A stretch of DNA of 56,976 nt, from the NCBI GenBank assembly GCA_001822075.1, contig MHPK01000006.1, positions 1 to 56,976 of the forward strand, read 5' to 3'. The first letter of the stretch is position 1. The number at the start of each line of letters is the position of its first letter. Positions 12,587 to 56,976 of the stretch are shown piece after piece. Under the pieces are notes generated by a model, which was given only the letters and a program-made list of their open reading frames with translations, had not been told where the DNA came from and searched no databases. The stretch comes from Candidatus Staskawiczbacteria bacterium RIFOXYB1_FULL_38_37. Lineage in GTDB: Bacteria; Patescibacteriota; Minisyncoccia; Minisyncoccales; Staskawiczbacteraceae. Made by a program: the position numbers and the translations under genes.

Positions 12587-13881
12587 TATTTAATTACTTT
12601 GAATCCGCAATATTTTTGTAGTGCTTTTGGAACCCTTATGCTCCCGTCTTTTTGCTGGTAATTTTCCATTATCATTATTAAAATTCTGCCAATTGCAAAA
12701 GCAGTGCCGTTTAATGTGTGCGCAAAGTTCATTTTTCCTGATTTGTCTTTATAACGTATATTTAATCTTCTTGCCTGAAAATCTGTGCAGTTTGAAGTTG
12801 AATGGGTTTCTCTGTATTTATTTTCCGAAGGAAGCCATGTTTCAATGTCATATTTACAAGCTGCCGGCCTGCCCAAGTCGCCCGTGCATATATTTATTAC
12901 CTGATATGGCAAACCCAAAGCTTTCATTAATTTTTCTTCAATAGATAAAAGCAACTGATGCTCTTTTTTTGAATCTTCTTGTTTTGAAAATATAACCATT
13001 TCCAGTTTATCAAACTGGTGCACTCTTAAAATTCCTTTTGTGTCTTTTCCATAACTGCCGGCTTCCCTTCTAAAACAGGTTGAAAAAGCAACATATCTTT
13101 TGGGTAAATCTTTTTCATTTAAAACTTCGTTAGCATGCATTGCCACCATTGGCTGTTCTGAAGTTCCTGCTAAAAACATTTTGTCTTCTGCCAAATAATA
13201 TGCTTCTTTTTCATCTGTTGCTTCAAAATATCCTGTTCCCCGCGCCATTTCTTCTTTTAACATTACCGGAGGAATTACGGGCACAAATTTCTCTCCTGAC
13301 TGCGCAAGCAGGTTTCTTGCAATATCCATTACCAGATTTATTAAAGCAAATTCAAGCAAGGGCAATTCGTTTTTTAAATATCCAAACCTAGAGCCCGCAA
13401 CCTTTCCTGCTCTTTCTGTATCTATTAAATCTAAATCTTTTCCCAACTGCATATAGTCCTTGGCTGTAAAACTAAATTTTGGTTTTTTGCCGACTTGTCG
13501 CATAATAACATTTTCCGACTCGTTTTTTCCAACCGGCACATCGTCAAAAGGAATGTTTGGCAGCTGCAAAAGCAAAGGGTTTAATTCATTTTCAATTCTT
13601 TCCAGTTCCGGCTCCATTTCTTTTATTTTTCCCTTAATCTCTTTTGCCTGCTCAATAATTGGCTCGTTTTTAAATCCTCCGCCGCCTTCGCCTGTGGGCT
13701 TCGGCGAGCCAAGCCTGCTGATTTTATTTTGCTCGGCTTTCAGATTTTCCATTTCAGTCATCAATTTCCTTTTTTGTTTGTCTAACTCCAAAATTTTATC
13801 TACGTCAACTTTGGTCTGCTTTTTCTCGCAGGCCTCTTTTACTTTATTTGAATTTTCTCTAATAAAATTTACATCAAGCAT
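12586..13881 (-). CDS. serS: Seryl-tRNA synthetase
   Basis: MLD start, GTSEQ, FRREAGSYGKDTKGILRVHQF, HTLNGT. Confidence 0.97.
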   Translation of the reverse strand: MLDVNFIRENSNKVKEACEKKQTKVDVDKILELDKQKRKLMTEMENLKAEQNKISRLGSPKPTGEGGGGFKNEPIIEQAKEIKGKIKEMEPELERIENELNPLLLQLPNIPFDDVPVGKNESENVIMRQVGKKPKFSFTAKDYMQLGKDLDLIDTERAGKVAGSRFGYLKNELPLLEFALINLVMDIARNLLAQSGEKFVPVIPPVMLKEEMARGTGYFEATDEKEAYYLAEDKMFLAGTSEQPMVAMHANEVLNEKDLPKRYVAFSTCFRREAGSYGKDTKGILRVHQFDKLEMVIFSKQEDSKKEHQLLLSIEEKLMKALGLPYQVINICTGDLGRPAACKYDIETWLPSENKYRETHSTSNCTDFQARRLNIRYKDKSGKMNFAHTLNGTAFAIGRILIMIMENYQQKDGSIRVPKALQKYCGFKVIK

Positions 13882-14002
13882 GTTTCTATATTTTATATAA
13901 TTATTTTTTTTCCATTAAAAATAAATACTCACAATGCTTTCCATCATTATTTATCCATTTATTTTTTATAATTATCTGGCTCTATTTTGGGGGTATTTCT
14001 CG

Positions 14003-14146
14003 TTACTCAGTCACTTCTTCTATTTTAATTGCATAAACAAGTTTATCTTTTATCCATTCAATAAAATTATTCAACGCCTGTTCCTCACTATCCGCCTCAA
14101 TCTCCATTTGCTCATTTATTTTGCATTTAATACTATATTCTTTCAT
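14003..14146 (-). CDS. Small 47-aa protein absent from the ORF track, DpnD/PcfM-like motif
   Basis: Manual translation MKEYSIKCKINEQMEIEADSEEQALNNFIEWIKDKLVYAIKIEEVTE; starts 11 bp after the MTase stop. Confidence 0.5.
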   Translation of the reverse strand: MKEYSIKCKINEQMEIEADSEEQALNNFIEWIKDKLVYAIKIEEVTE

Positions 14147-14156
14147 GTGCAAACAG

Positions 14157-15825: not shown

Positions 15826-17322
15826 TTATTGTTTTGGTCTCATTAATGGAAATATTTGGCATTCTCTGCCGGGTTTGTCTATTAAAAATGAAAATAATCT
15901 TTCTGAAACTCCAAATCCGCAAGTTGGAGGCATTCCGTGTTCTAACGCCTCAATAAAATCTTTGTCATATCTTTGCGCCTCCTGGTCGCCCGCATCTCTT
16001 AATTTCTGCTGTTCTTTAAATCTTTCTGCCTGGTCAATTGGGTCATTTAATTCTGAATAACCTTTGCCATTTTCTGAGCCGGCTATAATCACCTGAAAAC
16101 GTTGCACTTTATCAGATTTTTCCCCGCCTGCGCGGGCAGGCATTCTTTTTGCCAAGGGCTCCATAATAATCGGCACATTAATTAAAAATCCTGGGCCTGA
16201 AATATTTTTTCTGCAGTGTTTCCATAAGTTATCAATCGCTCTTGTTTTATTAAAACCTTTTTTATCGTAATCAATGCTTAATTTATTTAACGTTTTTTCT
16301 ATTTCCGGCAAACTGGCTTGGTCAAGATTTATGCCGGTATATTTTGCAATAGTTGACTGATAATCGTATTTTTCCCATTTTTTGCCGAAATCAACATCAA
16401 ATCCCCTGATTTTAAATTTTAATTTGCCAAATGTTTTTTTGGCAATGTATTTATACATCTCCTCAACTAATTTCATTCCCTGTTCATAATCAGCATAAGC
16501 CCAGTAAAATTCCATTTGCGTGTAATCCTGCAAATGTTCTGAATCCATGCCTTCATTTCTGAACTGCCTGCCTATTTCAAATGTTTTTTCAAATCCTGCA
16601 ACCATTAGTTGCTTTTGCCACAACTCGCCCATTGAAATGCGCAAATAAACATCCATATCCAAGGCATTATGATGGGTTTTAAAAGGCCTTGCGTCAGCTC
16701 CGCCCGGAGTTGTTTCTAAAACAGGAGTTTCAACTTCTAAAAATCCTTTTTTCATTAAAAATTCCCGTATAGAATTCCAAAAAATAGCCCGCTTTTTTAC
16801 CATTTCCTTAACTTCCGGATTAAACATAATATCCAAATATCTTTTTCTCAAACATTCTTCAACATCCTGCAATCCGTGCCATTTTTCCGGCAAAGGCAAT
16901 AATGCTTTTGAAAGCATTTTATAATCTTCTGCTTCAATTGTTTTTTCTCCTCTTTTAGTTTTAAATAAAGTTCCTTTTACTTCAACAAAATCTGCAATGT
17001 CAAAAACATCAAGAAAAAACTGGTAGCCTTTTGCGCCTATTTTATCTTCTTTTATAATAACCTGAATTTTACCTGCCTGCGCAGGCAGGTCAGAGCCGTC
17101 GTTAATATCCAAAAAGGTAGCTCCGCCATGGCCTCTTTGCGCCATTATTCTGCCGGCTAAAACTACAGGTTTTTTAGATTTAGATAATTTTGAAAAATCT
17201 TTCAAAACTTCTGCAATTGAATTAGTTCTTTTTGTTTTTGCAGGGTAAGCCAAAAGCCCGGCTGCCTCCAGCTTTTTTAATTTTTCTATTCTAGTTTTTC
17301 TAAGTTCTTCTATAGTTGGCAT
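15826..17322 (-). CDS. lysS: Lysyl-tRNA synthetase (class II)
   Basis: LPEKWHGL, RYLD, GGADARPF, YSELNDP, GMPPTCGFG. Confidence 0.97.
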   Translation of the reverse strand: MPTIEELRKTRIEKLKKLEAAGLLAYPAKTKRTNSIAEVLKDFSKLSKSKKPVVLAGRIMAQRGHGGATFLDINDGSDLPAQAGKIQVIIKEDKIGAKGYQFFLDVFDIADFVEVKGTLFKTKRGEKTIEAEDYKMLSKALLPLPEKWHGLQDVEECLRKRYLDIMFNPEVKEMVKKRAIFWNSIREFLMKKGFLEVETPVLETTPGGADARPFKTHHNALDMDVYLRISMGELWQKQLMVAGFEKTFEIGRQFRNEGMDSEHLQDYTQMEFYWAYADYEQGMKLVEEMYKYIAKKTFGKLKFKIRGFDVDFGKKWEKYDYQSTIAKYTGINLDQASLPEIEKTLNKLSIDYDKKGFNKTRAIDNLWKHCRKNISGPGFLINVPIIMEPLAKRMPARAGGEKSDKVQRFQVIIAGSENGKGYSELNDPIDQAERFKEQQKLRDAGDQEAQRYDKDFIEALEHGMPPTCGFGVSERLFSFLIDKPGRECQIFPLMRPKQ

Positions 17323-21794: not shown

Positions 21795-21905
21795 TGGTGA
21801 CGATTACCTACTCTCGCCCTAATGGACTACCATCGGCCTTGGTGTATTTCACTTCTGAGTTCGGAATGGGATCAGGTGGGACAACACCAGTATAATCGTC
21901 ACCGG
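21795..21905 (-). rRNA. rrf: 5S rRNA
   Basis: Complementary ends ggtgacgatt/aatcgtcacc; reverse complement contains CCCATTCCGAAC and GTAGG. Confidence 0.92.
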
Positions 21906-22445
21906 AAAACTCAATTAATAAAAATTTTCCGGAAATATTTTAAAATAAAATCTGTATCTATTTAAACTTACGTTGTGAATCGAAAGATATAGACCCGCTG
22001 TTCAGTACGACCAAACTCGAAATTCGAATATCGAAATTCGAAACAAATTTTAATTTTCAAAACTTAAATGTTCAAAACCCGTCGTGTTTTGGATTTTGGT
22101 TATTTGGATTTTTGATATTGTTTCGGATTTCGTACTTCGGATTTTTCGACGCACTGAACAGCAGGTCTATGATTTATTAGTACTCCCCGGCTGAAGGCAT
22201 TACTGCCCTTACACCTGGAGCCTATCAACCCCGTCATCTACGGGGAATCTATGAGTTCTCATCTTGGAGTTAGTTTCGCGCTTATATGCTTTCAGCGCTT
22301 ATCTATTCCCGACTTAGCTACTCAGCAATGCCCTTGGCAGGACAACTGATACACCAGAGGTCAGTTCATTCCGGTCCTCTCGTACTAGGAACAAATCTCC
22401 TCAAAACTCAACGCCTGCGGTAGATAGGGACCAACCTGTCTCACG

Positions 22446-23164
22446 CTTATACCACTTATTACTAAGTGCGTGGACTATACCATATTCCGTATATTTGTAA
22501 CTATTTTTTTACGGAACCCGACGTTTTATAAAATTATTTCTAATTTTATCTGCCCTAAAAATAGGACAAGTCTCTACGGGGTTAATGTACGTACTTTTCT
22601 ATTTTTGGAATAATTTAATTCCCGAAAAGTATCAATTAATTTCGCAAGAGCTTCAAAATCTTTTTTATTTTCAACTTTACTTTTTGCAATGATAATCTTT
22701 TTTAGAAGCGCCACCTGTAACTTTTTCATCACAACGTATGGCTCTACTAAATTTAAAAATTTGATTATATTTTCTTGTTTTCCGATGATATATTCTAGAA
22801 TACCATCTTTTCTAATTCTTATATAACCAAGATTTATCATCGAGCAAAGTTTCTCAAAATTTTTCTGGTCTTTCTGCGATTGGAACAAGACAATATACGG
22901 CGCAACTTGGAAACCAAACTTGTATGTTTTGTTTGGCTTTAATTGCACATAAATACTGCCGTCTCCATCGAGAAAACCAGCTAAATATGCTCTTTTTGTT
23001 TGCGAAATCAACTTTTTCATACACAACTTCCCTCGGTATTATCCTAACATATGACAGGTTAATGTTCAATACTTTGTTAGGAATTCACCGATATGAGTCG
23101 GTTTGCTATCACAATTGCTCATGAAAGCCGCCGTGTTGATCTCGATATATATGGTTCATTTTTG
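22446..23164 (-). mobile_element. Group I intron at 23S position 2593 (E. coli numbering)
   Basis: Exons rejoin as UUCAAACCGU|CGUGAGACAG; U before the intron, terminal G; gactatac core motif. Confidence 0.9.
22574..23026 (-). CDS. Single-motif LAGLIDADG homing endonuclease, I-CreI-like
   Basis: YLAGFLDGDGSIYVQLKPNKTYKF resembles the I-CreI N-terminus. Confidence 0.92.
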   Translation of the reverse strand: MCMKKLISQTKRAYLAGFLDGDGSIYVQLKPNKTYKFGFQVAPYIVLFQSQKDQKNFEKLCSMINLGYIRIRKDGILEYIIGKQENIIKFLNLVEPYVVMKKLQVALLKKIIIAKSKVENKKDFEALAKLIDTFRELNYSKNRKVRTLTP

Positions 23165-23253
23165 ACGGTTTGAACCCAGCTCACGTAACTTTTTAACCGG
23201 CGAACAGCCGGACCCTTGGGAGCTTCTCCACCCCCAGGATAAGTTGAGCCGAC

Positions 23254-24164
23254 CACAAAATTCTATTATTACTAATAGCGCAGACTATACCTTTATTTAG
23301 ATGTCCATCTAAATACCAACGTTTTATAGTATATAAAAAATAATACTATCTTCATCCTGCTTTTTGCAGGAATCCAGTCGTTACGGGGTTGCGAAAACCT
23401 ATTTTGTACATCATCGAAGGGATAATATACGGACTAATGATATTGGCTAATTTTTTTGTTTCTTCTTGGTTGCAATACATTCGATATCCTTTATCGCGGT
23501 CGCGATAATAATTTATTTTGATATCAAAAATATCTTTAAAGCATTCCTGCAGAAAAATTATTTCCGGTAAGGAAAAGGAATATGTGCTTATATCAATTTT
23601 ATTTTTGGAATATGAACCATCGTCCATAATCCAAATTGCCAAGATAAAAGGATTTAATTCTTTTTTAATTTCAACCGGAACTATTTTTGTTCCATTTTTG
23701 TAATCATTTCCTCTATAAAACCTTTTATATATTTCTGTAAAATATGGATGTCTTATTGTCCTAAACCACCACGATTTTTCATATTTATTGCCATTTTTAT
23801 CGTATCTGTAACTTATTTTTGGTTCAGTAAATACAAATGATTTAAGTATTTGGTATTTCCAAATAACATAATCTTTTTGCGCTAATCCATGTTCTACCTT
23901 AAAGTTGACATTTTGGGCGCCTTTACCCAAACGCATCGTTCCATCGCCAAGAAGCGATCCAATAATCAAATCTTTCTGCATTTTTGTCAGCAAAAGAGAC
24001 TTTTTAATTGGAATCCACTTTTTATGCCAATGTTTATTTTCGCAACTTCCCACGGTGTTGACCATATAATTGTGTAATTTACTTTATTATAGCAAATTTA
24101 CTGGGTTTTTTATATGGCTTTCTCCGTTATGAGTTGGTTTACTTCCTCGACATTCGGCTAATTC
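23254..24164 (-). mobile_element. Group I intron at 23S position 2504
   Basis: Exons rejoin as CACCUCGAU|GUCGGCUC; terminal G. Confidence 0.88.
23352..24065 (-). CDS. LAGLIDADG_2 (I-SceI-like) homing endonuclease
   Basis: LIIGSLLGDG and LAIWIMDDG motifs. Confidence 0.9.
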   Translation of the reverse strand: MVNTVGSCENKHWHKKWIPIKKSLLLTKMQKDLIIGSLLGDGTMRLGKGAQNVNFKVEHGLAQKDYVIWKYQILKSFVFTEPKISYRYDKNGNKYEKSWWFRTIRHPYFTEIYKRFYRGNDYKNGTKIVPVEIKKELNPFILAIWIMDDGSYSKNKIDISTYSFSLPEIIFLQECFKDIFDIKINYYRDRDKGYRMYCNQEETKKLANIISPYIIPSMMYKIGFRNPVTTGFLQKAG

Positions 24165-24219
24165 ATCGAGGTGCCGAACAGAGCCGTCGATAAGGACTCT
24201 CGGGCTCTACCAGCCTGTT

Positions 24220-25144
24220 CATGTTTTCACATAGACTATATCTTCACCCGCCCAAATATTTATTTTTGGCGGGGACGGCGTTTTAGCAAGGATTTTACCC
24301 TCGCTCTGTCTGAGACTTCAGACAAGTCGTTACGGGGTCAGGAAGAAAGTTTATAATTAAAATAATTAATAATATAATTTTTAATCAGCAATTTTAATTT
24401 TTCAATTTGTGAATGGGGAAAATAAATTGCAAACCCCTTCTTCTTTTGTTTTACTTTCGTTTGAATGTCAAACTTTTTAAGTATCGCCGAAGAAACAATA
24501 TTTGCTTCTTTTTCACTCACATTTCCAAGATAAAGATAACTACATTTATCTCTTTGATAATAATAGCCATCATCCATATACCAAACCGCAAACATTTGCG
24601 GTGAAATATATTTTTCCAGATTTTCCGGAATTATCTTTTTCCCTTCTGGATAAAACATTTTTCTTAATTTTCCCAAATAGGGGGTGGATTGCGATTGATG
24701 TCTCCAATACTTATATTTTCTTTTTGTCAAAGGATGGATTCTCTCCATATATTTTGGTTTTCCCTGGAATAACTGCTTTAACCTTTCTATTTTCCAAATA
24801 AGATATTCTTTTTGCTTATATCCATGTTCTAATCTTAATCGTGCGTTATTTTCCCCAGTTTTTTGCAAATATCCGTCTCCTAAAATTATTCCAAAAAGAA
24901 TTGATTCTTGCTCCTTAGATAAAGAAATCATGATTTTAGTAAAACTATTCTTCCGACTTCCCACGGTATTCCAATGGATTTTAAACCCTTTTTTGAGGGA
25001 AGACCAATCCATGGTTCACCGTTATAAGCCGTACGTGCCTGGAAAAAGTGGTAATTTCCCAAGCGCCCATTCTCACGAATGGGTTGGACAACAAACTCTT
25101 TTTCCCGCCTGCGCCGATAACTTTCGGCGGGCAGGTCAGAGTCT
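24220..25144 (-). mobile_element. Group I intron at 23S position 2449
   Basis: Exons rejoin as GGGGAU|AACAGGCUG; terminal G. Confidence 0.9.
24338..25012 (-). CDS. LAGLIDADG_2 (I-SceI-like) homing endonuclease
   Basis: ILFGIILGDG and FAVWYMDDG motifs; true start may be MISLS at 24932. Confidence 0.9.
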   Translation of the reverse strand: MDWSSLKKGFKIHWNTVGSRKNSFTKIMISLSKEQESILFGIILGDGYLQKTGENNARLRLEHGYKQKEYLIWKIERLKQLFQGKPKYMERIHPLTKRKYKYWRHQSQSTPYLGKLRKMFYPEGKKIIPENLEKYISPQMFAVWYMDDGYYYQRDKCSYLYLGNVSEKEANIVSSAILKKFDIQTKVKQKKKGFAIYFPHSQIEKLKLLIKNYIINYFNYKLSS

Positions 25145-25654
25145 ATCCCCGGAGTAGCTTTTGGCTGATGATCTTCTCATTTTCTATAAAAATGAGTCGG
25201 TTCACTAAGTTCTGCTTTCGCAACTGCGCGACATAGCCGTCTTGCAGTAAAGCTGGCTTATGGCTTTGCCCTATCGCTTCGATTTCCATCCGAAGCTAGC
25301 CAACCTTTAAACGCCTCCATTACTCTTTAGGAGGCAAGTGCCCCACTTAAACTGCCCATTAAACACTGTCATCCCAAGTTAAGGGAATTAGAATTATAAT
25401 TTTCAAAGATGGGTGTTTCATTGGCGGATCCATCCCGCCCGAAGGCGGGACTTCAAATCCTCCCCACTACGCTACGCATCGAAAATCATAAACCAATATC
25501 TAACTACAGTAAAGCTTCCGGGGTCTTTCCGTCTAGCCGCAGGTAGGCAGCATCTTCACTGCCATTGCATTTTCACCGGGCGCCTCGTTGAGACAGTCTT
25601 CAAGTCGTTAAGCCATTCATGCGGGCCGGAACTTACCCGGCAAGGGATTACGCT

Positions 25655-26186
25655 CAATTTTGTTACTTAGTGTTAATTAAGTCATTTTTAACACCGGTGC
25701 AGTCATTTCTGCTGCATTCTGCATGTCGCCATGCAGTTCAGACTATATCTTGCGTTCATTGAAAAAAAATGCGGGTAGAGGCATTTCGCATGCCCGCCTA
25801 ATGTCAATTTACGCCTTGGCGTATAGTCGTTGAGGGGAATAATTATTCAATAATCAATGAAAGGGAAACAAAAGAGATTGTTGCTCTATTGTTTTCCCTT
25901 CTCAGTTTAGCCATAACTCTACTCTTGCATCGTTTTGCCGATGCATCGTTTGAAGCACGGAAGGTCGTGTATCTCATACCACCGCTACAATCAATATATC
26001 GTTCCTCATACGTTAATTGATACACTCTTTCACTTACTTCTCTTTTTTTCATGGCTTTCTCCTTTATTCTTCCCTGCTGATTGTCCGCACCGAACATATT
26101 TTCACCCACGATACAATCGGGGTAATGTCGGATACAACGGAGTTTCCAGCATATAGCCAAGTTTTACAAAAGCAATTGCGTTTGTT
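25655..26186 (-). mobile_element. Group I intron at 23S position 1931
   Basis: Exons rejoin as AAAGGU|AGCG; P1 CAAAGGU/GCUUUUG; terminal G; AAUCAGCAGG core motif. Confidence 0.88.
25843..26052 (-). CDS. Small basic intron-encoded protein (69 aa), no recognisable homing-endonuclease motif
   Basis: ATG at 26052 preceded by aaaggagaaagcc; occupies the loop where the L1917 intron has its endonuclease gene. Confidence 0.5.
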   Translation of the reverse strand: MKKREVSERVYQLTYEERYIDCSGGMRYTTFRASNDASAKRCKSRVMAKLRRENNRATISFVSLSLIIE

Positions 26187-26200
26187 ACCTTTGGACGATT

Positions 26201-26949
26201 TCTCTCTTTTTATTAGTCCTTCGAGAGGTAAATCTCGGGACAGCCTTTATGTCGCCATAAAGAGCGGACTATATCATCCCGTTTCAAAAAATTAATTTTG
26301 ACGGGCTTCGCGTATAGTCTCTGAGGATAATAGAAATTTGTATATTGAGGATTCTTCAAATGGTTTGCGATGCGTCATTTTTTCTGCGATTCTTGCAATT
26401 TTTATCATTCCCTTTTTTGTTAAGTGTTCTCCCTTATCCATCATTTCAATAACTTTAACAAATCTTTCAAAATCATTTATTTTGGCTTTGCCAAAACATT
26501 TATAATTTTTGAAAAAAGGAATAATTTTTTCTTGCAATTCGCTTCTATTTCTGACGCAATATTTATAGAGAGGGTCCCATTTTCCTTGTTTTATATTTCT
26601 CGCGTTGTGCGCGTATATATGTCCGCAAGCAAAAAATTTTTCTAATTTATGAAGCAAATCTTTTCCTTTTAATGATTGTGAAACATTAAATTCAGGAAAA
26701 ACTTGCCATTTATTTTTTGCTCTTGGAGATTGAAATATATTTACAAGAAAAGACCCTTCTCCATCTACAAACCCAGTAATCCATCCACATATTTCTATTC
26801 TTTCCTGCTGATTGTCTGCACTGAATGCTTTTTTACTTTGCATAATATCAAAGGGGTAAATACACCTTTAATATATTATAACATAGTAGCATCAGATACT
26901 ACAGAGTTTCCAGCATATAGCGAAGTTTTATAACTACAATCGTCATCTT
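26201..26949 (-). mobile_element. Group I intron at 23S position 1917 (apparent omega-A)
   Basis: Guide sequence GACGAUUGUAGUUAU pairs both exons (AUAACUAU and AAUCGUC). Confidence 0.85.
26292..26843 (-). CDS. Single-motif LAGLIDADG homing endonuclease
   Basis: WITGFVDGEGSF, FNVSQ, IIPFF, EHLT. Confidence 0.92.
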   Translation of the reverse strand: MQSKKAFSADNQQERIEICGWITGFVDGEGSFLVNIFQSPRAKNKWQVFPEFNVSQSLKGKDLLHKLEKFFACGHIYAHNARNIKQGKWDPLYKYCVRNRSELQEKIIPFFKNYKCFGKAKINDFERFVKVIEMMDKGEHLTKKGMIKIARIAEKMTHRKPFEESSIYKFLLSSETIREARQN

Positions 26950-27644
26950 ATAGTTATCGCCGACGTTCATTGGTGCTTCATTCAGTGAGCCTGAACCTTA
27001 CGGCTCAGACCCCCAAACTTAACATTCCAACACTGGTCAGGCCTCACCCCCTATACATCCTCTTACGAGTTAGCAGGGAGCTGTGTTTTTGATAAACAGT
27101 CGCTTGAAGTACGTTTGTTGCATCCCGACCACCTTGCGGTGGAGGGAAGGCCATATTGCGAACTTACGGCCACTTGTTTGCCGAGTTCCTTAACGAGGTT
27201 TCACCCGTTCACCTTAGCATACTTACGCTTGTCCACCTGTGTCGGTTTGCGGTACGGTTCGAATACAATTAGCTTGATAGCTTTTTTCTGGGCATCGCGC
27301 TCATCTCAATTGTCCCGCCAAAGGCGGGGCTTTTCTCGCACCTTGATTTACCTTAGTGCAAGAGCGTGAAATCCAATAATCCGCTGAAACTACTGTAATG
27401 CGTCTTTCTATCAAAATGTATCCGAGGGTCGGAATATTAACCGACTGTCCATCAGCTGCCCCTTTCGGGTTTGCCTTAGGACCGCCTAACCCTTGGTTGA
27501 ATACCATTGCCAAGGAAACCTTGGACTTTCGGTGTGCAGGGCTTTCACCTGCAATGCGGTTACTCAGGCCAACATTCTCTCTTCTGAGCGCTCCACCGTC
27601 GTTTACACTTCGGCTTCAGTGCCCTCAGAATGCTTCCCTACCAC

Positions 27645-27770
27645 TACCGCTCCTCGCTACTGCTCGTCGCTTCATCATCGAATTACGAATTTGTTACGAA
27701 TTTACTAATTCGTACATTCGTATTGATTCGTTATTCGTTGATGAGCTCCGAACAAAAGTGAGGAGCAGTA
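27645..27770 (-). other. IVS-like long hairpin insertion in 23S helix 45
   Basis: taccgctcctc...gaggagcagta closing stem enclosing tacgaat/attcgt micro-repeats, adjacent to the conserved tgcttccctacc block. Confidence 0.65.
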
Positions 27771-29620
27771 ATCCATGTCTTCGGTATTAGACTTTAGTCC
27801 CGATAATCTTTGGCGCATCTCGCCCCTGCCTTTCCAAAGGAAAGACTTTGGGCAGTGAGTTGTTACACACTCTTTAAAAGATAGCTACCTCTAAGCTAAC
27901 TTCCTGCCTGTCTAGGGCAAAATACTTCCTTAAAAACACTTAGTCTAATTTAGGGACCTTAGACGATGATCTAGGCTGTTTCCTTTTTGACCACGGAGCT
28001 TAGCCCCCGCAGTCTAACTGCCTATCCAAAACACACGGTATTCGGAGTTTGATTAGAGAACCTGGAGAAACTCCAAGGAATTCTATTCAGTGCTCTACCC
28101 CCGTGTGCTGTTAATAGACGCCAGCCCTAAAGCTGTTTCGGGAAGAACCAGCTATTACGTAACTCGATTAGCTTTTCACTCCTTGCCACAAATCATCCAA
28201 GAGGATTGCACGCCTCACTAGTTCGGACCTCCTCCCGCCTTTCGGCGGGATTCATCCTGCTCATGGCAAGCTCGTCACGCTTCGGGTCCTGAATATACAA
28301 TTATAATTCGCGCTTTTAACACTCGCTTTCGCTATGCCTCCGCCCCAAAAGGGCTTAGACAATTATATATCCAGACTCGTTGGCTCGTTCTGCAAAAAGC
28401 ACGCCGTCACCCCGCCAAAGGCGGGGCTCCGACTCTTTGTAAGCAAATGGTTTCAGGTACTATTTCACCGGGGTCACCCCCCTACTTTTCACCTTTCCCT
28501 CACGGTACTGGTTCACTATCGGTGATATTGATTATTTAGCCTTGGCCGATAGTTCGGCCTGCTTCCTGCCAGGTTATCATTCCCGACAGTACTCAAGAAT
28601 CATAGCAAAGAGCATAATAAGTATTTTAGAATACGGGGCTATTACCCTCTATGGCGCCCCTTTCCAGGGTGCTTCTTTTAACACTATTATTTTGTATTCT
28701 CTCTCAGCAAGCATTACCTCGCGCTCCGCGCGAAAAATTTTAAATTTAAAATTTTAAATTTTTAATTCCTTTTGCGAAGCAAAAGGTAGTGCTCCTGACG
28801 CTACAACCTTACAACCCAGAATCTAAAGATTCTGTTTAGGCTTCCCCCTGTTCGCTCGCCACTACTAAGGGGATAACTTTGTTCTCTTTTCCTCCGGCTA
28901 CTGAGATGTTTCACTTCGCCGGGTACGCTTCTGTCCAACTTTTTAAACTTTAAATTTTTAAAGTACAAAAAGCTGGACAGATAATATGAGATTAATCATA
29001 TTGAGTTTCCTCATTCGGAAATCACCGGATCAAAGGTTGCTAGCCACCTCCCCGATGCTTATCGCAGGCACGCCACGTCCTTCATCGCATCAATATCCCA
29101 AGGCATCCGCCATTCGCTTATAACCTGACCTGCTGCTCAATGATTTCTGTCTTTTAAAAAATCATTGAGCAGCAGATCTATATCTTTCAATAAATTCAAA
29201 TGAATTTACGAAGATCACCATTCCATTTTCTTTTTGCGTAAAATGGAATTTTTTGCGTAAGTTTACCCGCCTAAATTTTCAATAAGAAAATTTGGCGAGG
29301 TTAATAGATACAGATTTTATTTTAAAATAAAATCTTATGCCCGCTTTCGCATAAAGCTACGGCGGGTAAATATGCTTTAGTTTACCTACTTTCTAACCAA
29401 GCAAAGACCCCTGTCTAAAACTTAGTTAGAAAAACCTGTTAAAAATTGCTGGTGGCAATTTTCCATCAAAGGAATTTAACAGGGTTAAATTTTCAATGTT
29501 CTTGGTTTTAATAAATTAAAAACCGCCTTTGCGAAGCGGTCATTTACTAACACAAAAAGTCAGACAGTTATCCGCTTCGTTTTTTGATAGTAGTTTTTAA
29601 TATATTTACCATGTAAATCT

Positions 29621-29649: not shown

Positions 29650-29721
29650 TAGCCATATGGCTAATTTACAATTTTCAATTTTTAATCAATTCCCCAAACT
29701 TTCAGGTTGTCCTACGACAAC

Positions 29722-29750
29722 TTGACAAGTATTCTTTACTATGATATGAT
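29722..29750 (+). promoter_or_regulatory. Sigma70-type promoter
   Basis: TTGACA-17 bp-TATGAT. Confidence 0.75.
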
Positions 29751-29833
29751 AATAATATAGCACAAATAAACTTCCCGACCATGTGTCGGACGGCCCTGGC
29801 AGGCCGAACTCCTAACAAGAAAGGGAAACTGCC

Positions 29834-30055
29834 ATGAGGTTTTACATTGAGAGGGGAGACAAACGCAATTTTGCGGCAGTTGTCATTGACGCGGCCGAAG
29901 CGCAAAATGACATTGTAGTGGAAGCACTCGGCAAACACTGCCTCTGTCAAAGAGGCATCGTTGGGGGGTCTATCACGACTTCCGTGACAGACTTTCAAAC
30001 CGAAAGTGCCCTGCGAGAACATCTTCAATCTCACGGCCTGCGCGTTCAAGCGTGA
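29834..30055 (+). CDS. Small hypothetical protein (orphan cassette)
   Basis: Own promoter, purine-rich RBS aaaggga, downstream terminator 30090-30120. Confidence 0.6.
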   Translation: MRFYIERGDKRNFAAVVIDAAEAQNDIVVEALGKHCLCQRGIVGGSITTSVTDFQTESALREHLQSHGLRVQA

Positions 30056-30291
30056 ACCGACAACCCGAGCAAGGGTTAAGCTGCTACACGCCGCGGACGA
30101 AAGTCGCGCGGCTTTTATTTTCAAAATTATTTGAATCAAAAGGGCGATATAATATTCGTCCCTAATTTTTGAAACGTTCGTAAAATTGGAGACAGCAAAC
30201 AAAAAGGCGTGGTACGTACACGCTTTTTTGTTGCCCCGCCTGCCCTGCCGGCAGGCTTTGGGGCCCTTTCAAATTGGACGTTATGTCAAAA

Positions 30292-30978
30292 TTATTTTTC
30301 TTCTATCTTTTTGTACATGTCAGAAATAATTTTTCCTGCTGTTTCCTTTCCGCCAAGTCCGATTGCCAAACCCGCGCCAAGAGCCAATGCTCCAACTATG
30401 CCGTAAACAATGCCAGTGTACAGTGTTACTACCAAAGCATTGTTCGGCAAAAGCTGGCCCAAAATCAAGAATATGGCAAATATCCAGATTGCCCATTTTA
30501 CAATTGAAGCTGCCAAATATCCATATCCGATTTTCAGCCTTTCCACAGAAACCCTTACAACTTTTTCAACAATATCAGAAATAACTATTGCGACAACAAA
30601 CACCAGCACTGCCACAATAACATTTGGCAGATAATTTAACACTCTGGTTAAAAATCCTGCGAAGGCAGTGAGTTTTAACACGTCAACTGCAATCAACAAA
30701 GATATTATAACGAACACCCATTTAAAAATGGCTCCGATAAATTCTGCGGGATTTACTTCAAGGTTTGCCCTTTGCAAGGCTTTTTTCCATCCCTCCTTTT
30801 CAAACAGCTTGTTAAATTTTACCGACTTTAGTATTTCGCTTATTATCCTGCCAATCCCCACTGAAATCAAATAGCCGATTATAAAAATTACCAAGGCCAA
30901 TATCAGGTTTCCGATAAAGCCTATAAATTGCTGTATAAACGGCTGGATTAACGTTAAAGACCAATCACTATATGTCAT
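30292..30978 (-). CDS. TM_helix-repeat membrane protein (MscS/CmpX-associated family)
   Basis: YLPNVIVAVLV, LAIGLGGKE. Confidence 0.8.
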   Translation of the reverse strand: MTYSDWSLTLIQPFIQQFIGFIGNLILALVIFIIGYLISVGIGRIISEILKSVKFNKLFEKEGWKKALQRANLEVNPAEFIGAIFKWVFVIISLLIAVDVLKLTAFAGFLTRVLNYLPNVIVAVLVFVVAIVISDIVEKVVRVSVERLKIGYGYLAASIVKWAIWIFAIFLILGQLLPNNALVVTLYTGIVYGIVGALALGAGLAIGLGGKETAGKIISDMYKKIEEK

Positions 30979-32595: not shown

Positions 32596-33699
32596 TTAAC
32601 CATGCTTGAACTCTATCACATCGCCGTCTTTAACAATATATTCTTTTCCTTCTGTTCTTAATTTTCCCTGCTCTCTAGCTTTTGCATAACTTCCTGCATC
32701 AAATAAATCTTTCCAAAACACAACTTCGGCTTTCACAAATTTATTTTTAAAATCAGTGTGTATTACTCCGCCGGCAATTGGAGCCGTATCGCCTTTTTTT
32801 ATTGTCCAAGCTCTTGTTTCATCTTCGCCTGTTGTCAAAAAAGTTATTAAATTTAAAAGTTCGTATGACTTTTTAATCAAAATATCTGTTTCAGATAATT
32901 CCGGCAAACCCAAATCCTTTCTTTCTTCTGTTGATAAACCTTCTGCCTCAAACTCTGTGGCTATATCAATAATTAAATACTGCCAGTTGTTTTTATTAAA
33001 AATTTCCAAAATATTTTTATCTATTTCTTCGTCTTTCCCGTTTAACAAATATAATCTTGGCTTAAAAGTTAACAACTGAAAACTTTTTAAAACTTCCTCC
33101 TCGTCGGGTGTAAAACTTTGGTCAATTAAAACTTTTTCCTGCGACAAAAATTCTTTGGCCTTTTTACAAACAGCCACCAAGCCCAAACTCGCCGAAGGCG
33201 GGATTGAGGCTGGCCCGCCCAAATGCCCAAGGCTTTTGGCGGGTTTCTCTAATGCTTTATTTATTGTTTCCAAATCTTTTAAAATAAGCTCAACATCTAA
33301 AATTTCTTTTTCTTTTAACGGGTTTATTTCTGTTTGACCTGCCTGCGCAGTCAGGGTGTTTATAATATCTGAATTTTTAAAAGCGCGTAAAACATACAAA
33401 ACCGCATCGGTTTCTCTTATGTTCGCCAAAAATTTATTTCCCAATCCTTCGCCCTCTGACGCTCCCTTCACCAAGCCGGCAATATCAACAAAATCAACCG
33501 TGGCATAAATTTTCTTTTTTGATTTTGACAGTTCTGCCAGCTTATCAACCCTTTCATCCGGAACCAAAACAACCCCTACATTAGGGTCAATTGTGCAAAA
33601 AGGATAATTGGCAATATCAACCTCCTTTTTAGTTAATGTTTTAAATAATGTGGACTTGCCCACATTCGGCAACCCCACAATCCCAATAGACAAACTCAT
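32596..33699 (-). CDS. ychF: Redox-regulated ATPase YchF (Obg family)
   Basis: [39 protein letters not shown]. Confidence 0.95.
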
Positions 33700-39241: not shown

Positions 39242-40191
39242 ATTGAGATCAAATAGTAATTTGTCTCGCACCACCGGACGAACGGTTTTCCCGTATCCTG
39301 GCGGTTTCCATCAGAGAATTGTGCTTTTTGCCCATTGATCGCATTTTATCTCGCAGTTTGACAATTTTGACGTAGCCAGAATCAGTCAAATGCTCTTTTC
39401 TGCGATACATTAACACAATTTTTTTAAATAATTTGTAGACCTTGCATTTTTTTGTCTGCAGATTGTATTCATCAAGAAAGGGAAATAAATAATTATTCAT
39501 ATCGTCCGCGCCCGTAATTTTGTATTTTACGTGCGGATACCAACCGTAACGGTCGTATGAACAATCATATAATTTTCCGCAACCGATTGTAATTAATACT
39601 CTTTCAAGTATTTCTTGATCATCGGCTCGGAGTTCGATTTCAAATTCGGCGCGAACTTGAACACCTCTGCGGTATTCATCGTTTTTGCCGATACTTACTG
39701 AAAACGAACCTTCTCCATCAATAAAACCTGCCACATAATGCGGGTTTAATTTTTCTCTATGGATTTGTTCCTTCCCGATAGGCGCTTTTAATTTACGATT
39801 ATAACGTTTATCGGTACTACGAACTCTGCTGACTTCTTGCTGTTGCATAAAACTAAAATTGCTTTTAATTTTTTCCTGAGGTTAGTTATACAACTTAATT
39901 ATATAACATTGCCAAAGAAACAACAACAAGATCTCCCCGGGTCATCTTAAAAAACTTTTTTCTACATCTCGGCCTTCCGATTATTGTAATTCTATAATTC
40001 TCAGATGACTTCCCTGTGTACTCGATAGGTCATCAGAATCACAACCTTTTAATGAAGGACTCAAGCTATAAAATGCCTCCCCACCCTTCAATTTAAATTT
40101 CACAATTTAAACCTGCGGATCGGCTTTGCGCAATCTGAGATATGCGTAGTAAGATTTTCACTTACTTTTTTCTAAAACTGCCGGGCATCCC
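39242..40191 (-). mobile_element. Group II intron (IIC-like) at 16S ~1397
   Basis: D5 AACCGCCAGGAUACGG...CGUCCGGUGG; D6 with bulged A; 3' AU; EBS1 GAGUAC (40018-40023) complementary to exon GUACUC. Confidence 0.85.
39249..39848 (-). CDS. Single-motif LAGLIDADG homing endonuclease in group II intron
   Basis: YVAGFIDGEGSF, LFPFLD, EHLT. Confidence 0.9.
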   Translation of the reverse strand: MQQQEVSRVRSTDKRYNRKLKAPIGKEQIHREKLNPHYVAGFIDGEGSFSVSIGKNDEYRRGVQVRAEFEIELRADDQEILERVLITIGCGKLYDCSYDRYGWYPHVKYKITGADDMNNYLFPFLDEYNLQTKKCKVYKLFKKIVLMYRRKEHLTDSGYVKIVKLRDKMRSMGKKHNSLMETARIRENRSSGGARQITI

Positions 40192-45019: not shown

Positions 45020-45214
45020 TTATTTTTTCCTGCCTGCGCCAGCAGGCCAGTCTTCTATTGTTATTTTACCGCCTTTTAAATTCAAAACAACTTTTTGGCG
45101 CTCTTTCAACTTTAATTCTTTGACCATTTCAACCGGAATTGTCACACATAAACTTGTTTTTCCCACCCTTGTCAGTTTTCTTATGTTTTTTTCGCTTTCT
45201 TTTTTATCTGACAT
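45020..45214 (-). CDS. AbrB/MazE-family DNA-binding protein
   Basis: RKLTRVGKTSLCVTIP..MVKELKL. Confidence 0.85.
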   Translation of the reverse strand: MSDKKESEKNIRKLTRVGKTSLCVTIPVEMVKELKLKERQKVVLNLKGGKITIEDWPAGAGRKK

Positions 45215-52660: not shown

Positions 52661-53713
52661 CTATTTTTCTATGCAAAAATTATTTTCTCCGCACTCTTCT
52701 TTTAAAACCTCAACCGGCTCAAATTTTGAATTTTTGTCTAAAAGCCCGTTTTTTGCCCCGATTTCAGACAAACAGGCTTCAGAGTTCGCTATGCCGAGCT
52801 GTATGGCTTTTTCAATATCGCCGCCACTTCTTATATAATCTGAAAGAAACCCAGAGGCAAAAGAATCTCCTGCTCCGGTTGCGTCGATAACTGGCAAATC
52901 TTTGTGGCCGACTACAGAATAAAAATATTTTCCGTCAGAAACAATAGCTCCCTCTTTTCCTTTGGTCATTGCAACTATACCCGGACACATTTCATCAATT
53001 TTTTTAAATATTTCGGGTTCTTCGCGAAAAGAAACTTTTGTTAAGAATGATGCTTCCTCCTGGTTTAAAACCAAAACATCTATTTTTTTTAAAATTCTCT
53101 GCAAGTCTTTTGAAGGCAAAGAAAGCTGAGTATTTCCGGGATTTACGGCTATTTTTATTTTATTTTCAAAAGCAAAATTTACTATGTCTTCAAATGGTGT
53201 CGCCTGCCTGCCGGCAGGCAGGCATAATAAACCTGAAAGCGGGGCTAAATAAATCCATTTTGTTTTAATTTTATTCCACGGAATTTTATTTTTATCCAGC
53301 AAATCAGACGCTCCGCGGTATGCTAAAATTGTCCTGTCTTCTCCTTCGCTTGAAATTATAACAGAGTAATTTGTCGCCTTTTCCTTTGTTTTTAAAACCA
53401 AACTTGTATCCACTTTAAATCCCTTTAATTCACTTATGATTTCGTTTCCTGCTGGATCATCCCCGACAACTCCGCAAAAAGCTGTTTTAAACCCCTGTTT
53501 GGCAAAAGTGGCAACCACGTTAGTTCCGCCTCCGCCAGTGGTAAATTTTATATCTTCAACATCAATTTTAGAGCCTAAAGCCAGGCAAATTCCTTCACCC
53601 GTAACAGAATCTTTATCGCCTGCCTGCGCAGGCAGGTCTTTGGTTGCCTTAAACGCCTTGGATTTTAAATTAATATCCTGCGCCGCTGACCCAAATGTTA
53701 TAATATCGTACAT
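52661..53713 (-). CDS. PfkB-family carbohydrate kinase
   Basis: GGGGTN, NQEE, DATGAGDSF. Confidence 0.92.
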   Translation of the reverse strand: MYDIITFGSAAQDINLKSKAFKATKDLPAQAGDKDSVTGEGICLALGSKIDVEDIKFTTGGGGTNVVATFAKQGFKTAFCGVVGDDPAGNEIISELKGFKVDTSLVLKTKEKATNYSVIISSEGEDRTILAYRGASDLLDKNKIPWNKIKTKWIYLAPLSGLLCLPAGRQATPFEDIVNFAFENKIKIAVNPGNTQLSLPSKDLQRILKKIDVLVLNQEEASFLTKVSFREEPEIFKKIDEMCPGIVAMTKGKEGAIVSDGKYFYSVVGHKDLPVIDATGAGDSFASGFLSDYIRSGGDIEKAIQLGIANSEACLSEIGAKNGLLDKNSKFEPVEVLKEECGENNFCIEK

Positions 53714-54671: not shown

Positions 54672-54678
54672 CTTACTT

Positions 54679-54704
54679 ACACCCGTGCACTAGTGCACGG
54701 GTGT
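54679..54704. promoter_or_regulatory. 26-bp perfect palindrome with ACTAGT core, candidate operator
   Basis: acacccgtgcactagtgcacgggtgt, 7 bp upstream of the start codon. Confidence 0.65.
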
Positions 54705-54730
54705 GTTTATATTTGACTATTTATATTAAA

Positions 54731-56976
54731 CTATTTTTTATCGTTAAGCTTTTTTTCGGTTTGGGCGATGGCAATTTTTGTTTTTATTACAGAATCAGGA
54801 TTCAGCGAAATTGATTCAATTCCTAGTTCCACCAAAAATTGCGCGAAATCCGGAAAATCAGAAGGCCCTTGCCCGCATATCCCAATATACTTTTCATTAT
54901 TTTGGCATACTTTTATTGCTTCTTCAATAAGCTCTTTTACAGCTTCGTTTTTTTCGTTGCCTATTGCAGACAAATTTGAATTGTCTCTGTCTAAGCCCAA
55001 GGTCAATTGCGTAAGGTCGTTGGAACCAATTGAAAACCCGTCAAAAATTTCCAAAAACTTTTCGGCCAAAATTACATTAGATGGAACTTCGCACATAACA
55101 TAAACTTTAAGGCCTAATTCTTGGCTTAACCCATTTTCTTTCATAATTTCTAAAACCCTTTTACCCTCTTCAACTGTTCTGCAAAATGGAACCATTACAA
55201 CCACGTTATCTAAGCCAAACTCTTCTCTTACTTTTTTAATAGCTTTTAGTTCCAGAACAAAAGCGTTTTTAAATTTTGGGTCGTAATACCTTGAAGCTCC
55301 TCTGAAGCCAATCATCGGGTTTTCCTCTTCTGGTTCATACAACTCGCCGCCAACCAATGACCTATATTCATTTGTTTTAAAATCAGAGAATCGCACAATA
55401 ACAGGCTTTGGATAAAAAGCTGCTCCGATTTTTCCGATTCCTCCGGCTAATTTATCAACATAGAATTTAATTTTATCATCATACCCCAAAGTCAGCTGGT
55501 CAATTTTTTTTCTTAATGCCGGCGATAATTTTTTGTAATTTATCAGGGCATTAGGATGGATTTTAATATCATTTGCAATTATAAACTCTTCTCTTGCCAG
55601 GCCAACGCCGTCGTTTGGAATAAAACTCAAATTAAACGCGTTTGAAGGCTCGCCCACATTCATTAAAATTTTGGTTCTTGTTTTCTGTATATTTGAAATA
55701 TCTGTTTTTTTAATTTCAAACGGAATAATTCCGTCATAAACCACTCCTGCTTCCCCTCCTGCGCAGGAAACTGTAATTTTTCTGCCAGTTTTTATTTTTT
55801 TTGTGCCCTCAGCTGTGCCCACAACTGTTGGAACTCCCAATTCCCTGCCCACAATTGCGGCATGGCATGTTCTTCCGCCTCTGTTTGTCACAATAGCTTT
55901 TGCAATTTTCATTGCCGGAACCCAGTCGGGGTCTGTCATATCTGTTACCAAAACTTCGCCCTCTTTAAACTTTTCAATATCTTTTACAGACATAATTACT
56001 TTTGCGGTTCCCTGCCCGATTTTACTGCCAACGCTCATTCCCTCTGCTAACACTATTTTTTTAGCAGCAGAATTTATTATATATTCTTCCAAAACACTAA
56101 GATTTTTTTTACTTTGAACAGTTTCCGGCCTTGCCTGCACAATAAACAATTCGCCGGTTTTGCCGTCTTTTGCCCATTCCATATCCATTGATTTTTTATA
56201 ATGGTCTTCGACTATTACAGACCATTTTGCCAAAGCCAAAATGTCTTTATCACTGATGCAAAAATTTTCTCTTTCTTTTTTTGTTGTTGCAAGGTCTTTA
56301 GTGGGATTTTTTGGGTCTTTTGTGTAAGTTAATTTTACCAATTTTGTGCCTAGTGTTTTTTCTAAAATTGGAGCAAATTCCTGCCTGCCGGTAGGCACGG
56401 CTTTTTTTAAAGTTGTTTCAAAAACATAAAACTGGTCAGGGTCAACCCTGCCTTTCACCACATTTTCTCCCAAGCCATAACTTGCGTTTATTAAAACAAC
56501 GTCTCCAAAACCGGATTCTGTTTCGCAAGAAAACATAACTCCCGAAGTTCCCAAATCAGACCTAACCATCTTTTGCACGCCAACCGATAAAGCAACAGAA
56601 AGATGGTCAACTTTTACCTGCTCTCTGTAAATAATTGCTCTGTCTGTAAAAAATGAAATAAAACAATTTTTAACAGCCCGTAAAAGCTGTTCTCTCCCGG
56701 TAATATTTAAATAAGTTTCAAACTGTCCGGCAAAAGAGGCGTCCGGATTGTCTTCGGCCACTCCGGAAGTTCTTACAGCAACATCTGTGGCGTTGCTGTT
56801 ATATTTTTTTGATAATTCCTCGTAGGCCTCAAATAAATCTTTTTTTAATTCTTCTGCAAAAATTCCTGTTTCAATTTTTTCTCTGGCTGCTTTGCCGACT
56901 GTCCTTACAGATTGCAAATTTTTGGGATTTAAATTTTTAAAAATTTCTGATAAAGATTTATCAAATCCGTTGGCTT
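54731..56976 (-). CDS. ppsA: Phosphoenolpyruvate synthase (5' end beyond window)
   Basis: SFAGQ, QARPETV, GGRTCHAAI, GLARE, FSIGSNDLTQ, ICGQ. Confidence 0.95.
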   Translation of the reverse strand, partial: ANGFDKSLSEIFKNLNPKNLQSVRTVGKAAREKIETGIFAEELKKDLFEAYEELSKKYNSNATDVAVRTSGVAEDNPDASFAGQFETYLNITGREQLLRAVKNCFISFFTDRAIIYREQVKVDHLSVALSVGVQKMVRSDLGTSGVMFSCETESGFGDVVLINASYGLGENVVKGRVDPDQFYVFETTLKKAVPTGRQEFAPILEKTLGTKLVKLTYTKDPKNPTKDLATTKKERENFCISDKDILALAKWSVIVEDHYKKSMDMEWAKDGKTGELFIVQARPETVQSKKNLSVLEEYIINSAAKKIVLAEGMSVGSKIGQGTAKVIMSVKDIEKFKEGEVLVTDMTDPDWVPAMKIAKAIVTNRGGRTCHAAIVGRELGVPTVVGTAEGTKKIKTGRKITVSCAGGEAGVVYDGIIPFEIKKTDISNIQKTRTKILMNVGEPSNAFNLSFIPNDGVGLAREEFIIANDIKIHPNALINYKKLSPALRKKIDQLTLGYDDKIKFYVDKLAGGIGKIGAAFYPKPVIVRFSDFKTNEYRSLVGGELYEPEEENPMIGFRGASRYYDPKFKNAFVLELKAIKKVREEFGLDNVVVMVPFCRTVEEGKRVLEIMKENGLSQELGLKVYVMCEVPSNVILAEKFLEIFDGFSIGSNDLTQLTLGLDRDNSNLSAIGNEKNEAVKELIEEAIKVCQNNEKYIGICGQGPSDFPDFAQFLVELGIESISLNPDSVIKTKIAIAQTEKKLNDKK

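Follow-up and report, generated by a model that had tools for sequence, protein, structure and literature searches.

Very short palindromes inserted in frame in housekeeping genes of a Candidatus Staskawiczbacteria genome and their apparent relationship to a GIY-YIG nuclease cassette

The Rickettsia palindromic elements (RPEs), reportedly described by Ogata et al. in 2000, are confined to Rickettsia, measure about 100-150 bp and have family consensus sequences. Shorter units are said to exist elsewhere: the small dispersed repeats of Nostoc (21-27 nt), reportedly from Elhai et al. in 2008, and the coding palindromes of M. jannaschii, reportedly from Suyama et al. in 2005, are very short mobile palindromes with nested copies, some of them inside genes, and neither is known to have an enzyme-bearing parent. 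In the present study we have analysed a stretch of 56,976 nucleotides (contig MHPK01000006.1, positions 1 to 56,976, hereafter the window) from the genome of Candidatus Staskawiczbacteria bacterium RIFOXYB1_FULL_38_37 (assembly GCA_001822075.1, hereafter G000), in which two palindromes lie in frame in housekeeping genes: the 18-nt CCTGCCTGCGCAGGCAGG (P18) and the 20-nt CCTGCCTGCCGGCAGGCAGG (P20), which equals P18 with CG added at the centre and is thus CCGG-centred. The Nostoc and M. jannaschii repeats would share the shortness, mobility, nesting and partly genic location of P18 and P20, whereas sequences and hosts appear unrelated. Among described kinds of element the nearest are RPEs, MITEs and REPs (the latter two are introduced below). 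P18 and P20 are like RPEs in being palindromic selfish DNA that sits in frame in housekeeping genes of a small AT-rich genome and is read as additional surface peptide. P18 and P20 differ from RPEs in measuring only 18-21 nt, in occurring in many phyla and in having a full-length relative that bears a nuclease. Thus the RPE analogy drawn in the initial annotation of the window holds for in-frame insertion without disruption of genes and fails for length.

MITEs (miniature inverted-repeat transposable elements) represent non-autonomous derivatives of inverted-repeat transposons (PMC10969869, PMC2229807); repetitive extragenic palindromes (REPs) are imperfect palindromes of 20-40 bp, one end of which bears a conserved tag, GTAG or CGTC, treated together with RAYT transposases and intragenic REPs (PMC3733652); and the homing endonuclease genes of GIY-YIG type have been reviewed (PMC3943268, PMC3984707). 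Within the portion of the literature accessible to us we found no account of the two palindrome sequences or of the encoded peptide, nothing on palindromic repeats within genes of Patescibacteria or the Candidate Phyla Radiation (CPR), and nothing on GIY-YIG domains in in-frame mobile cassettes. We propose, with a probability of roughly 0.6, that P18 and P20 are miniature gene-less mobile DNA units consisting of the ends of a GIY-YIG cassette and mobilised in trans by a GIY-YIG nuclease.

The relationship to a cassette is seen most directly in a WOR-3 metagenome-assembled genome (MAG), where a single long open reading frame (ORF) at locus L196 holds a P18, a 291-nt unit with the P18/P20 arms at its two extremities and an in-frame coding sequence for a GIY-YIG domain between them, and a 39-nt hairpin made of the ends only. 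A metagenome scan with the nuclease of this unit as query yielded 80 loci, 48 of which carry the ends CCTGCCTGCGCC and CGGCAGGCAGG (at most one mismatch each) spaced 279-300 nt apart. All 48 cassettes have lengths that are multiples of 3, and in 44 of them the host ORF runs through with at least 30 aa on either side. The G+C content of the contigs ranges from 0.32 to 0.65, and the cassette is present in a wide array of bacterial groups. In 32 of the 48 the cassette is preceded by GA and in 13 by GG, which is the same flank bias as that of P18, with which the cassette also has the reading frame in common. PF01541 (GIY-YIG) was recognised in all eight cassette proteins scanned (E 5.6e-16 to 6.9e-11), and Pfam placed the hosts checked among type I HsdR (at two positions), DUF1156 and type ISP/Eco57I-like genes. 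The inverted ends of the cassette extend over about 14-15 nt, beyond the P18 arms; the left 9 nt joined to the right 9 or 11 nt give P18 or P20 exactly, with 1-2 nt in common at the junction, so that P18 and P20 are ends-only relatives of the GIY-YIG cassette. The view of a short selfish unit taken in the initial annotation stands, but the unit is no orphan: an in-frame GIY-YIG cassette has termini which, put together, are identical to it.

With MITEs, P18 and P20 share the absence of genes, ends that match a longer gene-bearing element (the 48 of 80 loci), dispersal and bursts in particular lineages. They differ in the lack of a target-site duplication, in a size of only 18-20 nt, in a partner that encodes a GIY-YIG nuclease and no known transposase, and in that this autonomous partner was found neither in G000 and five relatives (protein search) nor in 41 genomes (end motif). 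The cassette, not P18, resembles a GIY-YIG homing gene in its domain and in its recurrence at the same positions of related host genes. Unlike a homing gene, however, it is read in frame, bounded by inverted repeats and present in at least four host contexts, it probably lies in neither an intron nor an intein, and the derivative made of its ends alone is found at more than 150 distinct sites.

About 38% of the window is G+C, its long ORFs lie nearly all on the minus strand, and it belongs to a genome of 762,385 bases in 7 contigs, estimated to be 98.8% complete; together with the large insertions in its 23S rRNA gene, these figures are in keeping with an ultra-small bacterium of CPR/Patescibacteria type. 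With 0-2 mismatches CCTGCCTGCGCAGGCAGG matches the window six times and 100 dinucleotide-preserving shuffles of it not once. Over the whole of G000 we counted 33 copies with up to three substitutions, 15 of P18 type and 18 of P20 type, against none in the reversed genome; the genome-wide count foreseen in the initial annotation thus bore out its repeat, with an intergenic share that is higher for P20. The P20 copies are scattered over six contigs, and contig C6, which makes up 24% of the genome, bears 11 of the 15 P18 copies (binomial p=8e-5). The clustering may stem from hopping over short distances, from a segment acquired by recombination or from mixed binning. The G+C content is 0.375 in C6 and 0.374 in C3 versus 0.363-0.367 in the other contigs. 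Host genes elsewhere in G000 include dnaG, gyrB, secA, pnp, rpsJ, rpsP and those of an ATP synthase subunit and a P-type ATPase. Insert-bearing genes remain open and conserved, and neither P18 nor P20 contains a stop codon in any frame. All nine copies of the initial annotation were recovered at their positions, with the peptides LLAQSG, PARAGG, LPAQAG, LTAQAG, PAGAGR, LPAGRQ and VPTGRQ read as it had claimed.

In order to compare filled and empty sites, host genes were aligned with up to 29 orthologues each, drawn from 40 relatives which together with G000 form a comparison set of 41 genomes; G001 is the genome of the same genus. In lysS, on the minus strand, a perfect P18 at 17072-17089 (site 1) is read as D-LPAQAG in the hairpin loop of the OB-fold, giving DGS-DLPAQAG-KIQ. 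This insert is found in G000 only among 30 orthologues, 22 of which are empty and seven of which hold other GC-rich palindromic inserts in the same loop. An allele in the 90%-identity LysRS cluster, 92% identical, lacks the site-1 insert, reads DGSD-KIQ and bears an RLPAGRQ insert elsewhere. The OB-fold loop (17050-17100) is a hot spot for several repeat families: the seven inserts, at L014, L016, L020, L023, L024, L029 and L033, all differ from one another, and one contig of run X17 carries a 138-nt replacement there.

The second lysS copy, a P18 variant at 16123-16140 (site 2), is read as PARAGG in frame 0 and lies exactly between ATG and GAA. Of 30 orthologues 26 are empty, G018 has an 18-nt copy, and G007 and G020 have 36 nt, in which 18 nt separate the same two 9-nt arms. 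The palindrome is present as the initial annotation stated. That annotation took it for a decayed 18-mer, but to judge by its arm signature it could instead be a longer element that has collapsed; the copy bears exactly the arms of the 36-nt relative, and longer forms therefore apparently do collapse. The LysRS of G000 is nearer to genomes of other genera (85-87% identity) than to that of G001 (82%) (loci L013-L042), and the site-2 insert is common to G000 and three of the closer other-genus genomes, which hints that lysS may have recombined between lineages.

The gene of the pfkB-family kinase contains a perfect P18 at 53619-53636 (site A), read as D-LPAQAG; the site is filled by a perfect P18 in G000, G001 and G024 and empty in 27 of 30 orthologues. 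At a second position (site B) only G001 is filled and reads GA[P18]A where G000 has GAA; the unit is therefore exactly the 18-mer and no base is duplicated. A decayed P18 with two substitutions in serS (13295-13312, within a Lys codon, read as N-LLAQSG) is absent from all 29 other orthologues. That of ychF, with one substitution (33338-33355, within a Thr codon, read as T-LTAQAG), is absent from all 28 other orthologues covering the site, and G001 carries a separate perfect P18 elsewhere in the gene. A copy with two substitutions at 45029-45046 gives PAGAGR in frame 0 and lies close to the C-terminal end of a 64-aa ORF (45020-45214, minus strand). The four paralogues of this ORF in G000 all lack the insert and end in DW(K/Q)K, the window copy being exactly 18 nt longer after TGG; the label 'AbrB-like' given to it earlier could not be verified, as no Pfam family matched it at E<=1e-5. 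Together, the alignments with orthologues or paralogues demonstrate an exact 18-nt insertion without target-site duplication in lysS, serS, ychF, pfkB and the 64-aa gene, with at most one ambiguous base at the lysS site, filled and empty sites differing by precisely 18 nt. Four of the seven G000 sites with orthologue data (lysS site 1, ychF, serS and ppsA) are missing from every relative examined; as even G001 lacks them, gain, loss or both must have been recent.

P20 is not a multiple of three, and its genic survivors carry either a compensating indel or a 21-nt form. A perfect P20 in pfkB (53203-53222) forms, with its compensating stretch, the segment 53189-53222, which reads C-LPAGRQ-ATP in place of C-DN. 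It is located at TG^CGACA in G000, G001, G010 and G011 and is accompanied by a +1 indel (+4 in G001) 5-6 nt downstream, the two intervening codons being out of the ancestral frame. In G003, P20 substitutes for 5 nt (net +15), and in serS of G005 it stands with one extra T alongside. As serS is essential, this last copy probably arose by an imprecise 3n insertion or from a 21-nt donor copy rather than by two successive events. The ppsA/PPDK-family gene (by Pfam) of G000 has a 21-nt derivative at 56380-56400 with one extra base inside the element and substitutions (two when scored against the 20-nt form at 56380-56399), read as A-VPTGRQ. It is absent from all 29 other orthologues, and subtraction of the 21 nt leaves KK-E-F where relatives have KK-G-F. 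Longer forms are rare in the comparison set, with 13 matches in nine of the 41 genomes, six of the 13 being 21-nt versions. In G000 six of the 18 P20 copies lie outside any ORF of at least 80 aa against 6% expected (p=5e-4), compared with at most one of the 15 P18 copies. Within the window this class is represented by a decayed P20-like palindrome at about 30235-30256, between ORFs 29702-30202 and 30292-30978 and directly after a terminator-like hairpin. The earlier statement that only 3n insertions survive is therefore correct for P18 and not for P20, whose copies are 20 nt long with +1, +4 or -5 compensation, or 21 nt, or intergenic.

The reading frame and the flanks were analysed in 164 distinct contexts of the exact 18-mer from G000, its relatives, other phyla and viral contigs. 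Among the 64 loci of at most 50% G+C with a clear ORF of at least 150 aa, 54 are read as LPAQAG, eight as PACAGR and two as CLRRQ (chi-square p=3e-17), and both frame-0 copies of the window have lost the Cys codon. Counting both sides, a purine immediately precedes the unit in 258 of 328 flanks; the flanks display this purine bias only and no tetranucleotide. Before genic P18 the preceding dinucleotide is GA in 24 of 54 and GG in 13 of 54 copies, and at 19 copies without an ORF of at least 70 aa running through them a purine precedes the unit in 27 of 38 flanks and GA is not favoured. The preference for GA before genic copies must be only partly a target preference, the other part coming from the Asp and Gly codons of loops. 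In a predicted LysRS structure of moderate confidence (mean pLDDT 71.5), insert 1 falls in the turn between strands 68-74 and 85-91 and insert 2 in a loop at residues 383-406 with pLDDT below 50, in agreement with the placement in loops proposed earlier. As DNA, P18 forms a stem of 7 bp capped by a GCGC loop (-6.5 kcal/mol). For the decayed serS copy the predicted fold is not superior to that of shuffled sequence (z -0.19), and the substitutions of old copies are not compensatory; because decayed copies lose the hairpin and substitutions do not compensate, nothing suggests selection on the copies after insertion.

With at most one mismatch, P18 occurs in 13 of the 41 genomes, G000 included, and P20 in 18, amounting to 89 P18 and 107 P20 copies, while the reversed control gave none in every genome. 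The two forms are distributed very unevenly: G024 has 17 P18 and no P20, G003 one P18 and 24 P20, G021 three P18 and 12 P20, and G016, which belongs to the same genus as G024 (g16), has neither, so the pattern is patchy even inside genera (17 versus 0 copies). The bursts of P18 and P20 are independent between lineages. At least 120 stretches of a reference-genome collection contain the exact 18-mer, and among the 80 matches listed there are many CPR classes, Bacteroidota, uncultured Gammaproteobacteria, WOR-3, Terriglobia and others, most copies being again in the LPAQAG frame within long ORFs. P18 is also present in 25 viral contigs. A search of viral contigs for the cassette gave only three partial hits of 20-28 residues. 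In Bacteroidota, Rhodanobacter and one Parcubacteria MAG the 18-mer is the core of longer palindromes with eight further complementary bases on each side, mostly intergenic (L130, L138, L159, L169, L191, L195, L197, L203).

According to the mechanism which we favour, each unit would represent the outermost 9-11 nt from both ends of the 279-300-nt GIY-YIG cassette. The units enter as exact pieces, without target-site duplication and usually right after a purine. In genes, the persisting copies keep the frame and sit in tolerant loops, mostly in the (D/G)-LPAQAG frame; the length of P18 is neutral in this respect and that of P20 is not, its genic survivors being compensated or 21 nt long and its surplus lying between genes. 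The copies later decay without compensatory changes. The encoded loop would have no function of its own, and mobilisation in trans would fall to a GIY-YIG nuclease of the cassette family, of which G000, although no cassette was found in it, has four free-standing small homologues that are 38-45% identical to the cassette nucleases over about 65-70 aa. Small GIY-YIG genes of this kind are present in 35 of the 41 genomes, a count that includes UvrC. The claim of the initial annotation that this is a DNA-level selfish mini-element of housekeeping genes, kept where the frame and a tolerant loop allow, is supported by these data.

In several CPR lineages a free-standing GIY-YIG gene is located between the fossil 5' half of a tRNA and an intact tRNA gene (L005 1440-1914, L153 1680-2110, L370 1400-1830, L164 6730-7260), and the D-loop of the fossil half, or that of a tandem tRNA copy, contains P18 or P20, at the same position in several of these lineages. 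This may be one more tolerant landing place, though a functional link could exist. Candidate cassettes obtained from long ORFs (G017 and G003) and from the end motif (G021) proved to be free-standing tRNA-adjacent GIY-YIG genes instead. A larger insertion sequence with P18/P20 ends was rejected as well, since the sole bracketing pair of half-sites within 100-1500 nt in G000 consists of two P20 copies 358 nt apart.

Several observations weigh against the proposal. The five relatives in which no full cassette was found are, like G000, rich in copies, and a search for the left-end motif of the cassette in the 41 genomes gave three one-mismatch hits, of which the single one inspected is not a cassette. 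G024, with its 17 P18 copies, has just one weak GIY-YIG match. All eight cassette hosts checked are genes of restriction-modification type whereas P18 lies in housekeeping genes, and the host ranges therefore differ; furthermore, no exact P18 or P20 occurs within the 80 short cassette loci. GIY-YIG enzymes, moreover, are known for homing or repair and are not known to be transposases. Finally, descent could run either way, the ends having come from the cassette or the gene having been inserted into the palindrome.

The reading given in the initial annotation is largely right, and the element is best regarded as a new and very small kind of in-frame selfish palindromic DNA that has a full-length relative and a putative mobilising enzyme. 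The further claim that a hitherto undescribed class of prokaryotic mobile element, translated inside genes and with a GIY-YIG nuclease as mobiliser, has the cassette as its autonomous member, and that P18, its ends-only derivative, is the smallest transposable unit known, is rather doubtful, and we advance it only tentatively. Were it true, P18 would spread through the essential genes of ultra-small bacteria, and across phyla, by means of a nuclease acting in trans. Should the mechanism favoured above be right, an 18-bp unit can act as mobile DNA in gyrB, dnaG, secA and the genes of aminoacyl-tRNA synthetases and ribosomal proteins, which it can colonise because it is free of stop codons, six codons long and lands in loops. 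It would also set a new lower size limit for transposable units, offer an uncomplicated natural origin for the loop insertions of conserved proteins and account for part of the unexplained variation in protein length of CPR bacteria. The cassettes in restriction-modification genes suggest a candidate enzyme accessible to bench experiments, and annotators should recognise the repeat as a frequent cause of apparent indels in the marker genes of MAGs. The contributions of the present work are an independent case, that of P18/P20, together with the evidence for compensation of P20, a negative test of RAYT involvement and a test of the link to the cassette.

The opposite direction of descent, in which the palindrome family came first and was moved otherwise, and a homing-type GIY-YIG gene then entered the centre of a palindrome and so gave rise to the cassette, is unlikely. 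The cassette can indeed be described as the 9-nt arms of P18 with extra sequence between them, and growth at the centre is documented by the 18 extra nt placed exactly centrally in the lysS copy of G007 and G020, by other composite forms and by the central position of P18 in the longer palindromes of Bacteroidota and Rhodanobacter MAGs. However, the inverted ends of the cassette, at about 14-15 nt, are longer than the P18 arms, and no empty P18 was seen at the host site of a cassette; the shared flank bias and frame are compatible with either direction.

Somewhat less probable again is that P18 and P20 are REP-like hairpins moved via single-stranded DNA by a RAYT-type Y1 (HUH) transposase. The absence of duplication and a unit that forms a hairpin fit the chemistry of the IS200/IS605 type, and P18 and P20 resemble REPs in being short GC-rich hairpin repeats. 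Searching the 41 genomes for Y1_Tnp, we found three such genes in G000, two of them bracketed by palindromes of their own families, and about nine of 17 Y1 ORFs in 20 inspected loci of relatives have one palindrome, identical or nearly so, repeated beside or within the gene. P18 and P20, however, bracket none of the three Y1 genes of G000 and none at the 20 Y1 loci of eight relatives; one locus has a P20 some 125 nt upstream of a Y1 gene, but the palindrome that brackets this gene is a different one. Nor are Y1 genes and the palindromes associated across the comparison set: Y1 is found in 14 of the 20 genomes that have P18 or P20 and in 11 of the 21 that have neither (Fisher p=0.34, for genomes that are related, hence not independent, and several of them incomplete), and there is no Y1 match in G001 (31 copies), G021 (15) or G015 (7). 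In contrast to REPs, P18 and P20 are perfect palindromes without a GTAG or CGTC tag and are mostly genic. A P18 near a Y1 gene in G029 was set aside, smpB separating the two. Two of the Y1_Tnp-like ORFs of G000 (C1:36228-37016 and C4:105342-106082) have an apparent Phe for the expected catalytic Tyr; each is flanked by its own palindrome family, and the C1 gene also has that of its flanks in frame inside it.

We regard as very unlikely that each P18 or P20 is merely the scar of a full cassette whose interior was deleted between the GC-rich ends, so that the short unit never moved alone. The joined cassette ends give P18 or P20 exactly, with the shared 1-2 nt at the junction, the 16123 copy resembles a centre-deleted 36-mer, and cassette, ends-only 39-mer and P18 occur together in the single gene of L196. 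Yet the comparison set, with its 89 P18 and 107 P20 copies, yielded no cassette, the nine aligned sites are free of cassettes in every relative, and the hosts of cassette and P18 differ.

Retention of the palindrome for a function, whether as a site that binds proteins or organises the chromosome, as a signal for DNA uptake or as a hairpin in mRNA, is highly improbable. An exact sequence common to several phyla, the concentration of P18 on contig C6 and perfect copies at one pfkB site in orthologues just 70% identical speak in its favour. Against these stand sites that are not conserved among orthologues, substitutions that do not compensate, a decayed copy that no longer folds, and a patchy occurrence even within genus g16; copy numbers are, besides, far below those of known uptake signals. 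The suggestion of the initial annotation that the copies act as mRNA hairpins or protein-binding marks thus received no support.

An assembly or library artefact is unlikely to the point of being negligible, because the 498-aa LysRS with both inserts is recorded, exact, from 44 contigs in several sources and both lysS copies are covered with zero differences by Logan contigs (contigs, not raw reads) from another four runs, which belong to four studies and of which none is flagged as a potential source, and, moreover, copies occur in MAGs of many unrelated studies and show in-frame compensation and decay, which are features of evolved DNA; nothing was found in favour of an artefact. A search of sequencing runs for the stretch turned up no RNA run that contains it.

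G000 contains at least four further families of GC-rich palindromes, namely a CAGCTG-centred 16-mer (seven copies), a 25-mer, a 27-mer and a 17-mer hairpin, with examples at C1:10801, C2:38339, C6:118311, C1:77238, C3:36802 and C4:117664. Some of their copies are in frame inside genes, and one peptide, SAKGGPASGW, is recurrent in LysRS and PfkB of relatives. The window also holds bacterial rRNA genes. The 23S rRNA gene has large insertions and spans about 4 kb (25087-29135), and extra 23S pieces are present several kb from it, at 22170-22411 and 23176-23251, with ORFs between them (window 21795-29135), a layout that suggests several intervening sequences or introns. Beside the 16S rRNA gene region, an Rfam match to the group II intron domains D1-D4 (52 bits) is located at 39768-39873, where it overlaps the end of a 199-aa ORF.

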